A program made the translations under genes and the position numbers. The notes beneath the pieces were generated by a model. The model ran no database searches, was not told the DNA's origin, and was given only the letters and a program-made list of their open reading frames with translations. 64,000 nucleotides of DNA. Origin: a virus (lineage: Duplodnaviria > Caudoviricetes). Positions 2-46,409 of this stretch are shown one piece after another; positions within the stretch are counted from its first letter, which is position 1, and each line of letters begins with the position of its first letter. The stretch is from the IMG/VR virus record IMGVR_UViG_3300025437_000009, one strand, 5' to 3'.

Positions 2-487
2 TTATTCCTTGTTTGGTACGCAGTTATTTACACGCACTCCACCTTTGACTTTGGTCTTAGGTGTGCCAATGTGTTTGCCTGACCAGCACTTAGGATCTAA
101 TCGTGTTTTAGTTGCTTTCGCTTCAGTTAATACTTGATTGTACCATGTCATGGCATTTTCTAACATAACCATTAGATCCTGCACCGATTCGCAATGCCAC
201 TTGCGTAGAGCTTTGTTGATACGGCTGTTTGGATCACGTTTAGTTTTTGCACCAGCACGATGTTTCTTCATGCCCTTCATTCGAGCACAAAAACTCTTAC
301 GACGCTTAGAGGCTTTTGACCCCTTCTTTAACTTGCTAGGTTTTGTAGTAACGGCAGTCTGTAGTTTAGAGCCAGGATGACTACGGCGATAAGACGCAAC
401 ACCCTTTTTATTTAGGCCGCCATTTTTGTTTTTGCCTTTACTGGTTTGCCAGGCTTCAGCTTCTACAACAAAATCTGAACTTTTCAT
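2..487 (-). CDS. basic modular phage protein (DUF6321-like), putative internal head protein
   Basis: AWQ..GKN..GGLN.KG.ASY.R..PGS...SFCARM.GMKK....PNSRINKALRKW.C module recognised from T4-like/cyanophage proteins; N-terminus MKSSDFVVE. Confidence 0.65.
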   Translation of the reverse strand: MKSSDFVVEAEAWQTSKGKNKNGGLNKKGVASYRRSHPGSKLQTAVTTKPSKLKKGSKASKRRKSFCARMKGMKKHRAGAKTKRDPNSRINKALRKWHCESVQDLMVMLENAMTWYNQVLTEAKATKTRLDPKCWSGKHIGTPKTKVKGGVRVNNCVPNKE

Positions 488-488
488 A

Positions 489-2543
489 TTACTTGATGCT
501 TTCTTTTAATTCGTCAACTAAACTATTTAGTTTTTTGCTTTTTTCGTTCTGTAGCTTAGTCCAGTAGTCGGTGGATTCATCTACATGTTTAGGTTTCTTA
601 TGTGCCTTCTTCATAGCAATAGCAATAGCGGCCTGCTGTGCTGGGCTACCAGCTTCTTTCATAATAGGCATAAGTGTAATTTTATCCGCTTTGGTTTTGT
701 CGCCCTGATTATATAACTTCTTCTTCCAGTTATCGTGGAATTGACGAGCTTGTTCATAGTAGTCAAATTGTTTAACAGGTTTACCAGCTAGACAAACAGC
801 ATATGGTTCTACTTTTTTAAAGTCTTGATATCCCTCTGCTACACCCTGTTTTAATTTGCGTTCATAATCAGCTATAATCTCATTGCGATATTGTGGACTT
901 TGTGCAATAGCACGATTGATATGATCAGGATATACAGGAGTCTTGGCTTGTCGGTTTACTACTGCATGGTGACGTGGATCTGGATCATCTTCCCATTCGC
1001 CATCATCAAAATCATTTTCAAATTTCATATTACCACCAATTGGACTTGCGCTATCGTTAGCCATAAAGTCATTACTGTCTTCATCAACACCTGTTAATGC
1101 TATCACAGGATCTGCACTTTCTTTAGCCCATTGATCGTGCTCGCTTGACCAGTCGTTTGTACCATCATACCAACTGTCTTCTTCAAGTCCAACCATTGTA
1201 TACTTGTTAGCAGGATCTCTAACACCAATCTGCATGCCAGGATATTTGTTTTTGATAGCCTGTGCGTGACGCTGTGCCAACTCTTGTGACTCATGCGACT
1301 TAATAGGTACCCAATCTGCTCCTACACGTTTGCATACAGTATGATACCCTGCCGCATTAGGTACTGTAAGTCCTCGAATAGCTAGGTCTTTCATGCCGCC
1401 TTCTTCTAATTCACCTTGATTGGGATCGGATACAGGTTTAACATAAGCGCCTTTGTTGGTAAGATATTCGTGAATAAACTGTAACAAATAACTAGGATTA
1501 CCAAATAGATTTAACACTAGAGTCTTTTTAGTTTCTGAATCAGGCATTGCAGATAGGATGTCCATGACACCTTTAATCTGTTTGCGTTTGATTTTGATTG
1601 GAATCAAACTGCCCGGAGCTTCAATATCTACTGTATCGTGATTCGCTACATACGCATTGACAAATTTTTGTAAATTATCATCTGCTACTTGTTTAACAAA
1701 AGGAGTTGGGTTAACAGCTTCTGCTACCTTTTGTCCACCCACTAGACTTAATAAACTAGCCGCTTTTTGTTGTCTTGCTGTACCTAGGTCTTTTACTTTA
1801 CCTGCACCAGTAGTGGGCTTTGGTTGAACAGTGGGTTGATTAGCAGCCCAATTAGTAGCTGGTTGTGTTTGATACTGAGCCAATTGTTGTTTTGGACTTA
1901 CTACTCGTCCTGGTGTTTGTGTCAATTGACTAGCCATCTGACCTAGTGCAGGACTTGCAGTAGGTTCTTGAGTTGTTTGAGCAGTAGGCTCTTGTGCCGT
2001 TTGTTGAGTCTGTTGAGGCTCGGCGGCAGTTGATGATGTTCTTGGAACAATAAATGTAGGAGCTGTTCTTGTTTGTGCAGGCTTAGTTGAAGCCTTAGGA
2101 GTTCCAGTAACTGGATTAAATAAGTCTTTGGGTTTTTGTGTTACCTTAGGTTCTTCTCCACGCTCAATATCCTGTGCAGCACGTGCTTGCTCGGGCGGTG
2201 TAAGATCCATACCGGCAACTTTTTGTGTAAAGTCTTGGAAACGACGTTCTTTGTCTTGTACAAACTTGTTAGTAGAATCGATCTGTTTATATAAATCTTT
2301 TTCTTGTTTTTGCAGTTGATCAATTTGTTGTTGCTGTTGTTGATTTAACTGATCAGTTTTCCAACTGTGCGCCGCCAGGGCTTCTACATCATTAGCACCG
2401 GGATATTCTTTACGTGCAGCATCAATGGCCTTGCGAGTATCTGCATACTTAGTAGTTTTATAAAGATCTTTATCCTGAGATTTCTTTGCGCTAGCTTTTG
2501 CTTCTGCAAAGGTCAATGGATTAACTAAGTCGTACAAATTCAT
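489..2543 (-). CDS. 684-aa modular protein, putative protease-processed internal head protein
   Basis: long ORF; short modules separated by LEEG/LEED/VDED/VAEG/MKEA/VDES. Confidence 0.55.
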   Translation of the reverse strand: MNLYDLVNPLTFAEAKASAKKSQDKDLYKTTKYADTRKAIDAARKEYPGANDVEALAAHSWKTDQLNQQQQQQIDQLQKQEKDLYKQIDSTNKFVQDKERRFQDFTQKVAGMDLTPPEQARAAQDIERGEEPKVTQKPKDLFNPVTGTPKASTKPAQTRTAPTFIVPRTSSTAAEPQQTQQTAQEPTAQTTQEPTASPALGQMASQLTQTPGRVVSPKQQLAQYQTQPATNWAANQPTVQPKPTTGAGKVKDLGTARQQKAASLLSLVGGQKVAEAVNPTPFVKQVADDNLQKFVNAYVANHDTVDIEAPGSLIPIKIKRKQIKGVMDILSAMPDSETKKTLVLNLFGNPSYLLQFIHEYLTNKGAYVKPVSDPNQGELEEGGMKDLAIRGLTVPNAAGYHTVCKRVGADWVPIKSHESQELAQRHAQAIKNKYPGMQIGVRDPANKYTMVGLEEDSWYDGTNDWSSEHDQWAKESADPVIALTGVDEDSNDFMANDSASPIGGNMKFENDFDDGEWEDDPDPRHHAVVNRQAKTPVYPDHINRAIAQSPQYRNEIIADYERKLKQGVAEGYQDFKKVEPYAVCLAGKPVKQFDYYEQARQFHDNWKKKLYNQGDKTKADKITLMPIMKEAGSPAQQAAIAIAMKKAHKKPKHVDESTDYWTKLQNEKSKKLNSLVDELKESIK

Positions 2544-9624: not shown

Positions 9625-9632
9625 AAAAATAT

Positions 9633-43652: not shown

Positions 43653-43751
43653 TTAGCTATTCAAAACTTTTGCCACACTATTCATTACTGATGCAATACG
43701 ACCAATGTCACGCAAGTTTTCTACTGTGTAGCCTTCTTGCTTGAGTGTGTC
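43653..43751 (-). pseudogene. orphan duplicate of the ahpD 3' end (32 codons plus stop)
   Basis: translates DTLKQEGYTVENLRDIGRIASVMNSVAKVLNS*, 26/32 identical to the C-terminus of 44677..45192. Confidence 0.85.
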
Positions 43752-44602
43752 AATGAGCCTTCCGCCACACCTTGCTCTACGCTTTCTTTCACTCCGAGTT
43801 TATCAATGATATACTTGCAACTTGATGCAGAAGTATTGATGAAACCCATGAACATTGGCCTATCATCTTTCATCATTGGCATTATATTTTTAACAAAAGA
43901 TCGTGCAGTTTCTTGGGTATAATTTGGAGGAAGTCCAACATAATTGGCTAAAGCAGTCGATGCTTTGTATGATTTATTTGAATACTCCTCTAACATATTC
44001 ATAAAACCATCATCTCTCGGTTGAGTATTTTTGAATACTCCTTTTGCCATTTCAAAAGTTCCAAAGCATTCCGCAGTAATTTTTGCCATTTCTCTGTAAT
44101 CAGAATCGGCGACCGCTTGCTTAGCCGCACCTAATCCGATTGCGCCAACAGCCGCCGCACCCAAGCCTTTCAAAAATCCTCTACGGTCAATTTCATCTAA
44201 CTGTGCTTCCGCCACACCTTGCTGTCCTTGGACAGGGCTGTCTCTAAGTGCATCTCGATAAAACTCTTTGAAATCTTGTGCCAATTCTCTTGCTGACCAC
44301 GCCCAAGTTTGACTGTCCCAATCGTCTGTCATCTCAGCTTCAAGTTTAGTACTCGGGTCTCGACCACGACTAAACCCTATACGAACAGTATGTTCAATTT
44401 GTTTATTAACCAACTTTGCAAATAGTTTGCCATTGGGATTTGGATTAATTGTTACTTTATATCCGTGTTTTTCAGCAAACTGTATCGTTGGCTGTAAGAA
44501 CTGGATTTTAGGATCAACAACACCAGCTTGGGCTGGAATATCTTCCGCCACCGGAGTCTGTGCGGTTTCTATTAAGTTAATGTAATCTCTAAGTGTTTTC
44601 AT
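43721..44602 (-). CDS. modular putative capsid-targeted protein with internal Tat signal
   Basis: MKTLRDYINLIE start after TAAATA (alternative ATG at 44665); LDE-IDRRGFLKGLGAAAVGAIGLGAAKQAVA. Confidence 0.65.
   Translation of the reverse strand: MKTLRDYINLIETAQTPVAEDIPAQAGVVDPKIQFLQPTIQFAEKHGYKVTINPNPNGKLFAKLVNKQIEHTVRIGFSRGRDPSTKLEAEMTDDWDSQTWAWSARELAQDFKEFYRDALRDSPVQGQQGVAEAQLDEIDRRGFLKGLGAAAVGAIGLGAAKQAVADSDYREMAKITAECFGTFEMAKGVFKNTQPRDDGFMNMLEEYSNKSYKASTALANYVGLPPNYTQETARSFVKNIMPMMKDDRPMFMGFINTSASSCKYIIDKLGVKESVEQGVAEGSLTHSSKKATQ
43759..43776 (-). repeat. 18-bp direct repeat AGCAAGGTGTGGCGGAAG, copy 1
   Basis: identical to 44206..44223. Confidence 0.85.
44206..44223 (-). repeat. 18-bp direct repeat AGCAAGGTGTGGCGGAAG, copy 2
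   Basis: identical to 43759..43776; 10-bp core also at 44542..44551. Confidence 0.85.
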
Positions 44603-44676
44603 AATGTAGTATTTATTCCTTGTTCTTACAGTTATCGCCGTGCCAACATAAGATCGATCTCTCATAGAAATATTTA

Positions 44677-45192
44677 TCAACTATTCAACACCTTTGCTAC
44701 ACTATTCATTACTGCCGCTATTCTGCCGATGTCTCTCAACTGCTCAACAGTATACCCCATCTTTTTTAATCCATTATAATGGGCCGAGACACAGAACTTG
44801 CATTTTCCAACAATGCTTGCGGCAAGGCTATATGCCTCAAATCGTTCTTTAGTCGTACCACCGTGGGTTGTGATTGCGTTCATTCTGAGTTGAGCCGGAA
44901 GACCTTTAAGGTTAGCATCTTCTGCCATCTCTACATATGGATACCAAGTGTTGTTCATCGACATCAAAGATGCGGCAGTGAGTGCGGCATCTCGCTCTTG
45001 TGAGTTTTCCATAGAACTTTGAATAAAGGTAACTAATTTCCCGTTACCTGTGCTCATTGCGGCGGCCAGCGCACAACCTTCTGCTTCCTCAACTGCTAGA
45101 GTACTACGCTTAATAACAGCGTCCAAGTTCAACTTAGTGTCCTTGGCGTACTCAGGCAGACCTTCTTTAAGTTGATCTACCCAGGCAGTCAT
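44677..45192 (-). CDS. ahpD: alkyl hydroperoxide reductase AhpD
   Basis: YAKD.KLNL, AASLM.MNN.WY, CKFCVSAH; follows ahpC. Confidence 0.9.
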   Translation of the reverse strand: MTAWVDQLKEGLPEYAKDTKLNLDAVIKRSTLAVEEAEGCALAAAMSTGNGKLVTFIQSSMENSQERDAALTAASLMSMNNTWYPYVEMAEDANLKGLPAQLRMNAITTHGGTTKERFEAYSLAASIVGKCKFCVSAHYNGLKKMGYTVEQLRDIGRIAAVMNSVAKVLNS

Positions 45193-45731
45193 TATAAAGT
45201 CTCTCCGCCAACTGTACGGTTGCAAGCACATAGTTCGCCAGTTTGAAGTGCGTCAAGAATACGCAAAGTTTCTTCAGGGCTACGACCTACGTCCAAGTTG
45301 TTTACAGTAACGTGTTGGATTGTGTTGTCTGGATCAACAATGAATGTAGCGCGAAGTGCCGCACCAGCTGGAGCATAGAATACGCCCAACTGCTCTGCCA
45401 AGCTCAACTCACCACGCTGTGTATCAGCAAATTGGTTGTGCTTGATGTTGATCAAGTCTGGATGGCTCTTCTGCCATGCGATCTTACAGAACTCATTGTC
45501 TGTTGAACCTGTTAGCAATACTGCGTCACGGTCTTCAAAGTCTTGATTCAATTTGTCGTATGCTACGATTTCTGTAGGACATACAAATGTAAAGTCCTTA
45601 GGGTAGAATACGATTACTTTCCATTTACCTTCAAAAGAAGTTTCATCAATGTTGAAGAAAGCATCTTCTGGTTGGCCTGGCTTAACGCCTGTTACTACAA
45701 AGTGTTCTAATTTATCACCGATTGTTTTCAT
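45192..45731 (-). CDS. ahpC: peroxiredoxin AhpC
   Basis: FYPKDFTFVCPTE; GELCAC. Confidence 0.95.
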   Translation of the reverse strand: MKTIGDKLEHFVVTGVKPGQPEDAFFNIDETSFEGKWKVIVFYPKDFTFVCPTEIVAYDKLNQDFEDRDAVLLTGSTDNEFCKIAWQKSHPDLINIKHNQFADTQRGELSLAEQLGVFYAPAGAALRATFIVDPDNTIQHVTVNNLDVGRSPEETLRILDALQTGELCACNRTVGGETL

Positions 45732-45758: not shown

Positions 45759-46409
45759 TTACTTTTGTGAATTGCAGTTATAGCAAATCACTTCTAAATT
45801 GTCTTCTACGTTATTGTAGATGTCGTTGTCCCATTGTGTTACAGTTAACGGTGCTGGACGACCTTGCCATTCTGTAATACCGCAGGTTTCACATTTATGA
45901 CCACGCTTTTGGATAATATAATCTTGGATATAGTCCGGAACAGTTTTCCAGTTATATACACTACAATCGCTCATCCATTCTTCAATTCTTTTTTCACTAA
46001 GTAATTTTTTTCTATGATTTTGCTGGCACTGATTGTTACAATATTTGCTTTGATACGATCCGCCTCTTACAGGATTTTCTCTGTTACAGAATAAACAGTT
46101 GAATATAATTTGTCTAGAATTTAACATGTCAATTGCGTTATGAGATAATCCTTCTCCGCCTGGAGTTTTATTGTGTAATATTCCTGTATTGTTATTTTTT
46201 CTTCCATACTCGGCTATTAATTGTTTTTCTAAATTAAACGCTTCGTCTTCGCTTAAGTTATCTTTATAGAATACAATTCTATTTTTGTCCTCCGGTGGAT
46301 GAACACTTCTTCCATAACATCTTGTAGCTCGACCGTTGCGACCTTTGCCGATATAGTACGGAGTACCATCTTCTCTTAAATACCCGTAAACGTAAAAATC
46401 ATTAATCAT
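45759..46409 (-). mobile_element. free-standing GIY-YIG endonuclease-like gene fused to a degenerate HNH zinc domain
   Basis: FYVYGY..EDGTPYYIGKG...RA; KCETCG...NLEVICYNCNS lacking the HNH His residues. Confidence 0.6.

Follow-up and report, generated by a model that had tools for sequence, protein, structure and literature searches.

Why would a phage protein carry a signal for twin-arginine translocation (Tat) at residue 138 and not at its N-terminus? The question is raised by P0001, a protein encoded in IMGVR_UViG_3300025437_000009, an IMG/VR virus record (Duplodnaviria; Caudoviricetes) from which a stretch of 64,000 nt was analysed (hereafter the window). The peptide that a first-pass annotation quoted from this DNA is real: on the minus strand, positions 44105–44200 encode residues 135–166 of a 293-residue open reading frame (ORF) at 43721–44602. 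The segment is likely to function as a Tat signal that sends the module behind it to the periplasm. The fuller reading, in which P0001 would be packaged, a prohead protease would expose the signal and the host Tat system would export the cargo after injection, has in our judgement about an even chance of being right.

By sequence comparison P0001 is modular, because its metagenomic homologues each cover just parts of it. The gene and its modules (aa, amino acids) are:

43721–44602, minus strand: whole gene, 293 aa (P0001), start ATG at 44602, product beginning MKTLRDY
44567–44602, minus strand: leader, aa 1–12, MKTLRDYINLIE, capsid-targeting-like and ending in L-I-E (compare MKTYQEFIAE of T4 IPII/IPIII)
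44543–44566, minus strand: spacer, aa 13–20, TAQTPVAE, ending in V-A-E
44207–44542, minus strand: N domain, aa 21–132, 12.7 kDa, ending with the first QGVAE linker
44192–44206, minus strand: pentapeptide AQLDE, aa 133–137, between the predicted cuts at VAE132 and LDE137
44108–44191, minus strand: Tat-type signal peptide, aa 138–165, IDRRGFLKG followed by an Ala/Gly h-region and A-V-A (TIGR01409)
43760–44107, minus strand: predicted exported domain, aa 166–281, 13.1 kDa, a four-helix bundle in the AF2 model, ending with the second QGVAE
43721–43759, minus strand: tail, aa 282–293, GSLTHSSKKATQ, with the stop codon; an out-of-frame read into an orphan copy of the 3' end of ahpD

A Tat-type signal inside P0001

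Positions 44108–44206 of the window (minus strand) translate to AQLDE-IDRRGFLKGLGAAAVGAIGLGAAKQAVA, residues 133–165. All parts of the signal named in the first-pass annotation are present: a twin-arginine core, D139-R-R-G-F-L-K145, which is near S/T-R-R-x-F-L-K and has its first Arg at residue 140 (the motif had been placed about 135 residues into the protein); an h-region of 15 uncharged, Ala/Gly-rich residues (G146–A160); and an AxA-type peptidase site (A163-V-A165). The NCBIfam model TIGR01409 (TAT_signal_seq) scores 21.4 bits on P0001 (curated cut-off 16.7). Its positions 1–29 align to residues 138–165, and the match opens at the first residue after L-D-E137, in agreement with the claim that the motif stands directly behind an LDE site. 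The h-region is short and weakly hydrophobic, and the best 19-aa Kyte–Doolittle (KD) window of P0001 is 1.44; outside residues 142–165 there is no hydrophobic segment elsewhere in the protein (next best 19-aa KD window 0.62). The signal segment itself is disordered in the AlphaFold model.

The same composition is found across the family, in which the h-region averages 43% Ala and 30% Gly with a mean KD of 1.21. The Tat-like motif is not due to chance, as judged from its conservation, because RR, F and L are invariant across 150 aligned relatives and RRGFLKG is kept despite synonymous codon changes (six Leu codons and four Gly codons are used).

Coupling of the signal to [LIV]xE

A 53-position profile, built from 13 motif segments, was searched against 1.84 billion cluster representatives (50%-identity clusters) and matched 552 of them at E ≤ 1e-3 and 105 at E ≤ 1e-10. 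RRxF[LIM][KRQ] is present in 149 of the 150 top matches; the match of P0050 (6182 aa, no RRxF) was rejected as a low-complexity false positive. Pooling the top profile matches with those of the first homologue search gave 157 proteins with 160 occurrences of the motif. The survey of homologues for E-x(0-2)-RRxFL that the first-pass annotation had proposed bears the pattern out: [LIV]xE ends two to four residues before the invariant RR in 157 of the 160 occurrences, and exactly two before it in 141, with a family consensus of QGVAE-GSLEE-ID-RR around the signal. Most occurrences (126 of 160) lie deeper than residue 21, up to residue 1076, typically as QGVAE-GSLEE-ID-RRGFLKG, and the other 34 come straight after the leader, e.g. 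MKTLREYIDQLDE-ID-RR or MRINEIITETQVDE-ID-RR. Divergent contexts also retain [LIV]xE (VDE-DLT-RR, VAE-ADMN-RR and LTE-VD-RR). Three proteins (P0019, P0063 and P0147) have two such signals each, which is hardly explained unless they are cut: uncut, they would have no consistent topology.

Because the profile itself contained the LxE columns, which biases its ranking, we also scanned IMG/VR and one genome per prokaryotic species with a degenerate DNA pattern for RRGFLKGxGA, i.e. without any selection on the upstream residues. The scan returned 46 distinct instances in viral contigs and 115 in bacterial genomes. [LIV]xE is found two to four residues before RR in 37 of the 46 viral instances versus five of the 115 bacterial ones, and exactly two before RR in 28 of 46 versus none of 115. 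Their positions also differ: the viral instances have a median of 195 open codons upstream; a Met lies at most 35 residues upstream in 106 of the 115 bacterial instances. This is a clear contrast, and it indicates that the [LIV]xE coupling is a property of the phage version and not of Tat signals generally.

In other viral contigs, internal RRGFLKG is also seen with no [LIV]xE upstream, at L055:1227-1255, L057:665-693, L061:3500-3528, L064:14145-14173 and L070:4433-4461. Three of these five ORFs run more than 1000 aa further (1073, 1154 and 1750); the class may stand for large ejection proteins from unrelated phages.

Leader, module borders and prohead protease

The start of P0001 at ATG 44602 is backed by homologues that begin MKT[LF]RDYINLIE, and also by an ATAAATA that sits between this ATG and the in-frame starts further upstream. 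The leader MKTLRDYINLIE resembles the N-terminus of the T4 internal head proteins IPII and IPIII (both beginning MKTYQEFIAE; IPI begins MKTFKEF), a likeness judged by eye, there being no profile for so short a peptide. At least 70 of the 157 family proteins begin with the leader pattern M[KRN]x(1-3)[DEQ][FYILV][ILVFTE], and many family leaders begin MIIFDLFE. One metagenomic protein, P0168, begins MKTYQFITE, which is nearly the capsid-targeting sequence of IPII/IPIII; it also has an internal DE-DLS-RRGFLRG at residue 217.

Five of the seven [LIV]xE sites in P0001 fall exactly on module borders (E12, E20, E132, E137 and E281). In T4, the prohead protease gp21 recognises L/I-X-E and cleaves behind its Glu, IPIII needs no more than its first 10 residues for packaging, and the phage is able to deliver a packaged foreign protein into cells; the propeptides of giant phages hold redundant cut sites (PMC9026906). 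The QGVAE linkers of P0001 and its relatives are probably V-A-E cut sites of the same kind. The N domain recurs in many modular metagenomic proteins (57–98% identity), in which a (Q)GVAE- or PVAE-type sequence invariably comes before it and a conserved linker, (E/Q)QGVAE(G/A), couples it to very different modules. It has no match to a Pfam or PHROG family, and its AF2 model (helix, four strands, helix) is unreliable, with a pLDDT of 53.

Protease, capsid and TatA/TatC genes were sought in related records, among which small fragments were uninformative. The window is syntenic with G001, a 228-kb IMG/VR contig whose matched proteins are mostly 25–65% identical. G001 has a T4-type head module with a major capsid protein (Gp23 family, 326 bits), a scaffold and a Peptidase_S77 protease (the gp21 family, 87 bits). 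The capsid protein of G001 has Y-L-R-E/N at the N-terminal position that matches the cut site of T4 gp23 (L-T-E/A). Peptidase_S77 is also found in the large motif-bearing records G003, G004 and G006, which include a genome that is complete at 355 kb and has terminal repeats. TatA and TatC are absent from all five related records searched, so the phage would have to rely on the Tat system of its host.

Cargo behind the signal

We excised 150 modules that follow the motif and scanned them with Pfam and NCBIfam. Pfam assigned TonB_2 to 16, TonB_C to 12 and the TolA C-terminal family to 11 of them, with single matches to Peptidase_M48 and Gly-zipper_Omp; four matches to DUF6321 are probably read-through from another module. 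NCBIfam assigned tonB_Cterm to 15, tolA to 14 and an OmpA-like family, PdsO, to one. The recognisable cargo is periplasmic, as TonB/TolA C-terminal and OmpA-like domains work only in the periplasm. In soluble periplasmic form, the TonB C-terminal domain acts as a dominant negative on TonB-dependent uptake.

Most cargo modules, the bundle of P0001 included, belong to no known family. The helical domain with a Cys pair that the first-pass annotation had described is modelled by AF2 as four helices (core pLDDT ∼80, pTM 0.68) and contains the sole cysteines of P0001, Cys179 and Cys262. Both are kept in P0013, the only homologue found for the bundle: it is 56% identical over the aligned Tat-plus-domain stretch, and its Tat-like segment and bundle are likewise internal, behind ...NESEELDE-IDRRGF. 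A search of PDB and AFDB clusters with the bundle model returned generic helical bundles only, at E > 0.2 (ferritin/Dps, interferons and small lipoproteins), from which no function was drawn, and the suggested role in superinfection exclusion or envelope remodelling gains no direct support for this bundle. Searches of PHROGs with P0001 gave nothing significant, a word-based search with residues 160–285 found nothing, and a feature search of the ESM Atlas gave no usable match. The idea that the C-terminal domain is a diverged or frameshifted AhpD was rejected: overlap with the orphan ahpD copy is confined to the final 12 codons, which are read in a different frame.

A route from capsid to periplasm

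In the reading that we favour, P0001 would be a modular proprotein of the T4 internal-head-protein type, made late in infection. Its 12-residue leader would bring it into the prohead in the manner of the T4 capsid-targeting sequence, and a gp21-type prohead protease would cut after the Glu of [L/I/V]-x-E at the module borders (E12, E20, E132, E137 and E281). Only through the predicted cut at E137 would the signal, which begins with residue 138, come to stand at an N-terminus: cleavage behind L-D-E137 would create a new N-terminus, IDRRGFLKG..., which amounts to a complete Tat signal with RR at positions 3–4 (E. coli CueO also has RR at positions 3–4). The fragment would then be ejected together with the DNA into the cytoplasm of the next host and exported by the host TatABC, and signal peptidase I would cut after A-V-A165. 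A 13-kDa four-helix bundle would thereby be freed in the periplasm, to act on the envelope just as infection begins. The QGVAE linkers probably have a double role here, as V-A-E cut sites in the protein and as microhomology for module shuffling in the DNA.

Unmasking and export had already been put forward in the first-pass annotation. What has been added is the coupling to an upstream site, the T4-like leader, the S77 protease in relatives and the periplasmic cargo of sister proteins, along with two points that the annotation had overlooked, the modular make-up with its QGVAE linkers and the recent insertion of the gene as a cassette; packaging, every cleavage, delivery to the cytoplasm, Tat dependence and the function of the bundle are steps that we infer.

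Several points weigh against this scheme. Tat can take signals with N-terminal extensions, as thylakoid Tat does by a loop mechanism, and cleavage is then perhaps unneeded; family members with RR at residues 16–17 could be exported directly in the producing cell. At 20.0 bits, P0001 falls slightly short of the gathering score of Pfam TAT_signal (PF10518), which is 22.7. The published rule is L/I-x-E, and allowing V at P3, as the VAE sites require, extrapolates from it. The list of 150 top matches was ranked by a profile that includes the LxE columns, and the DNA-pattern scan is smaller, with a bacterial control dominated by Pseudomonas orthologues. The copies of the motif are probably all homologous, so that the counts are not independent events, and the LxE-RR coupling could have been inherited as one block and not selected. 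G005 (the IMG/VR record of L075, 342,865 bp, 99% complete) has no Peptidase_S77 at E ≤ 1e-3, where one candidate was scored and failed; it carries the motif, and the choice is between a diverged protease and an exception to the association. Finally, no cultured phage carrying the motif was found: when the region, the protein and two motif peptides were compared with 50,697 GenBank phages at the nucleotide and protein levels, nothing matched, although a low-complexity filter may mask the motif peptides in this search.

Other explanations for the internal signal

The explanation that survives best among the others, which we nevertheless regard as unlikely, is that the internal signal is used uncut in the producing cell. 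It would insert as a loop, the downstream module would cross the membrane and be freed by signal peptidase, and the upstream part would stay cytoplasmic; the product would serve lysis timing, exclusion or the envelope, and the capsid would not be involved. This would account equally well for the Tat motif and the periplasmic cargo, RR lies within the first 21 residues (a normal signal position) in 34 family members, and the tolerance of thylakoid Tat for extended signals points the same way. Internal Tat motifs do work in dual Sec/Tat membrane proteins (PMC3471235 and PMC5449189). The known internal motifs, however, follow Sec-inserted transmembrane helices, of which P0001 has none. Direct export would also leave unexplained why a leader like the T4 capsid-targeting sequence is present, why [LIV]xE stands beside the phage motif and not the bacterial one, why unrelated soluble modules are strung on cut-site-like linkers, and how the two-signal proteins would insert.

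It is also rather doubtful that the segment has nothing to do with Tat and is merely Tat-like, i.e. a conserved Ala/Gly-rich ejection peptide that is membrane-active or oligomerising, or an element that docks to the capsid interior or the scaffold. Ejection proteins of other phages do act at membranes, and internal RRGFLKG without LxE is found in viral proteins running more than 1000 aa (L055, L057 and L064). But a generic membrane helix would not need RR, F and L to be invariant in 150 sequences, and 15 uncharged residues with a KD of 1.44 are short and weak for a membrane span. The segment has, moreover, the full Tat consensus (D-RR-G-F-L-K) with h-region and AxA, scoring above a curated cut-off, and TonB/TolA/OmpA-like cargo must reach the periplasm.

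Internal translation starts, by which each module would be made as an ordinary N-terminal Tat precursor, are improbable. The GTG of the linker (CAA GGT GTG GCG GAA) would initiate M-AEAQLDEIDRRGF...; its rare GTG and GCG codons recur at most loci (expected frequency of the whole linker spelling 0.2%), AAGGA lies 9 nt upstream of the GTG in the P0001 gene, and T4 gene 21 is annotated with an internal start. Yet the sequence ahead of QGVAE varies, the AAGG within the linker is just 1 nt from the GTG, and many motifs that have neither QGVAE nor a Val/Met codon upstream keep [LIV]xE (NESEELDE-ID-RR in P0013 and FEDEQLEE-ID-RR). Recombination, which is directly visible at the locus, explains the conservation of the DNA equally well.

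Least probable of all, with only a small chance, is that the motif has its use in other proteins but the P0001 gene itself is dead, a chimera that a recent cassette insertion left behind. In favour of this, a duplicated ahpD 3' end flanks the gene, whose own end reads out of frame into the duplicate, the N domain is nearly identical to copies elsewhere, and the nearest relatives of the N domain are without the Tat module. But the ORF is intact, with a promoter-like motif and a proper leader, and none of the module borders is lost; the junk tail would be trimmed off, since it comes after the final VAE site; and the Tat-plus-bundle stretch, with both Cys, is conserved in the different architecture of P0013.

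Relation to known systems

Exposure of a Tat signal by a prohead protease would join features of several known systems. P0001 resembles the T4 proteins IPI, IPII, IPIII and Alt, which have a short MKTYQEFIAE-type leader ending in [LI]xE, are cut by a protease of the gp21 family (Peptidase_S77, found in phages related to ours), and are encoded by hypervariable, shuffled genes outside the core head module, with presumed late expression. It differs from these proteins, which enter with the DNA, act in the cytoplasm and have no export signal, in carrying a complete Tat signal behind a predicted cut site, and P0001-type proteins are multi-module chains on QGVAE linkers. Packaging and cleavage are established for the T4 proteins and predicted for P0001.

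The signal itself shares with bacterial Tat signals (TIGR01409 and PF10518) the D-RR-G-F-L-K core, a 15-residue Ala/Gly h-region and AxA. Unlike them, it begins at residue 138, its RR following an acidic L-D-E-I-D; [LIV]xE two residues before RR is found in none of the 115 bacterial instances with the same core.

Thylakoid-lumen proteins have bipartite presequences, from which a processing peptidase removes a stromal transit peptide and so exposes a Tat-type transfer signal. The logic is similar (serial targeting signals, the second of which is a Tat signal that becomes N-terminal by proteolysis in the first compartment), but in the phage the first compartment would be the capsid and the protease the prohead protease, and there is no homology.

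Polyvalent proteins of phages and conjugative elements (Iyer, Burroughs, Anand, de Souza and Aravind, 2017) are reportedly multi-module chains that travel with the DNA and are presumed to be split into separate effectors. In this they resemble P0001 as we read it; unlike P0001, their modules are mostly DNA/RNA-directed and anti-restriction, with no QGVAE linkers and no T4-type leader, and we know of no export signal reported for them.

Twin-arginine motifs that are not N-terminal also occur in dual Sec/Tat proteins such as the actinobacterial Rieske protein Sco2149 (PMC3471235 and PMC5449189); these motifs follow Sec-inserted transmembrane helices and stay as anchors, unlike the signal of P0001, which has a peptidase site. 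The parts of the proposed route are known (proteins with capsid-targeting sequences, the gp21 rule, Tat signals, and the unmasking of chloroplast Tat signals by proteolysis) but their combination is not: searches of the full-text literature found no paper that describes packaged or injected phage proteins with a Tat signal, and none on the QGVAE linker.

We put forward, as a tentative generalisation, that giant T4-like phages of lakes and seas may pack chains of effectors into their capsids, cut them, inject them and have them re-exported via the host Tat system, with QGVAE as both cut site and recombination joint. Injected phage proteins, e.g. T4 IPI and Alt, act in the cytoplasm; re-export of injected proteins to the periplasm, if true, would be a new viral route to control of the envelope at time zero. 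Ready-made TonB/TolA C-terminal decoys, OmpA-like domains and the P0001 bundle would then be in the periplasm before phage gene expression. They might be used to exclude competing phages or colicins, to interfere with TonB/Tol-dependent uptake, or to counter defences that act at DNA entry (a periplasmic defence system acting at this step is described in PMC13128918). The route would also be the first counterpart in a bacterial virus of the bipartite-presequence logic of chloroplasts, and it would mean that Tat signals can be kept silent through position. With its hundreds of clusters at 50% identity and cargo modules that mostly match no known family, this large family would offer a catalogue of candidate periplasm-directed phage effectors.

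Genomic context of the P0001 gene

On sequence comparison the P0001 gene is a recently inserted cassette. Its N domain shares 92% identity with that of G001, with the other proteins of both phages far more diverged, and a recent transfer is indicated by its 92–98% identity to copies in phages that are otherwise distant, their other proteins mostly being 25–65% identical. The features of the insertion and its surroundings are:

43653–43768, minus strand: orphan duplicate of the 3' end of ahpD, a mark of the cassette insertion (it agrees with the intact copy at 27 of 38 aa)
44677–45231, minus strand: intact ahpD-like gene (CMD family, by Pfam), directly upstream of the P0001 gene and the target of the insertion
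44206–44223: first copy of an 18-nt exact repeat that encodes QGVAE, bounding the Tat-plus-bundle module
43759–43776: second copy of the 18-nt exact repeat, encoding QGVAE at the junction with the orphan ahpD fragment
44610–44616, minus strand: ATAAATA, like a T4 late promoter, 8 nt upstream of the ATG (a second copy is at 44671–44677)

The duplicated ahpD 3' ends lie on both sides of the gene and are 75% identical over 77 nt (the copy on the intact side is at 44681–44757); the 12-aa tail of P0001 is probably junction debris. The ahpD-like gene is not part of the proposed export mechanism.

Across loci, QGVAE is mostly spelled CAAGGTGTGGCGGAA, for which codon usage predicts a frequency of 0.2% (GTG accounts for 13% of Val codons and GCG for 6% of Ala codons). 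Since this rare spelling recurs, the linker is conserved also at the DNA level, most simply as a recombination joint, i.e. microhomology for module shuffling.

A QGVAE linker is also found in a second modular protein of the window, P0031 (684 aa, 489–2543, minus strand), whose C-terminal modules (AQQAAIAIA...; ...YWTKLQNE..LNSLV.ELKES) are common to metagenomic relatives. The ORF next to it (2–487, minus strand) is 60% identical over 95 aa to the C-terminal part of a 359-aa modular protein of G001, and the P0031 locus is syntenic with positions 191938–200535 of G001.

On the other side of the P0001 gene, the ahpD-like gene and a gene for an AhpC/TSA peroxiredoxin overlap by 40 nt (44677–45731, minus strand); the pair is a peroxide-detoxifying auxiliary metabolic module. 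The ORF that adjoins ahpC (45759–46409, minus strand, 216 aa) has a start that looks GIY-YIG-like by eye (YVYGYL...PYYIGKG) and Cys-rich C-terminal motifs, with no Pfam match at E ≤ 0.1, and it may encode a homing-type endonuclease near the insertion site.

The window has ATAAATA, which resembles the T4 late promoter TATAAATA, 20 times on the minus (gene) strand and three times on the plus strand, mostly 6–35 nt ahead of ORF starts, and these motifs are putative late promoters. The motif often stands just 6–9 nt before an ATG (e.g. at 9630, 17108, 24045, 36999 and 58664), a spacing that suggests very short or leaderless late transcripts.

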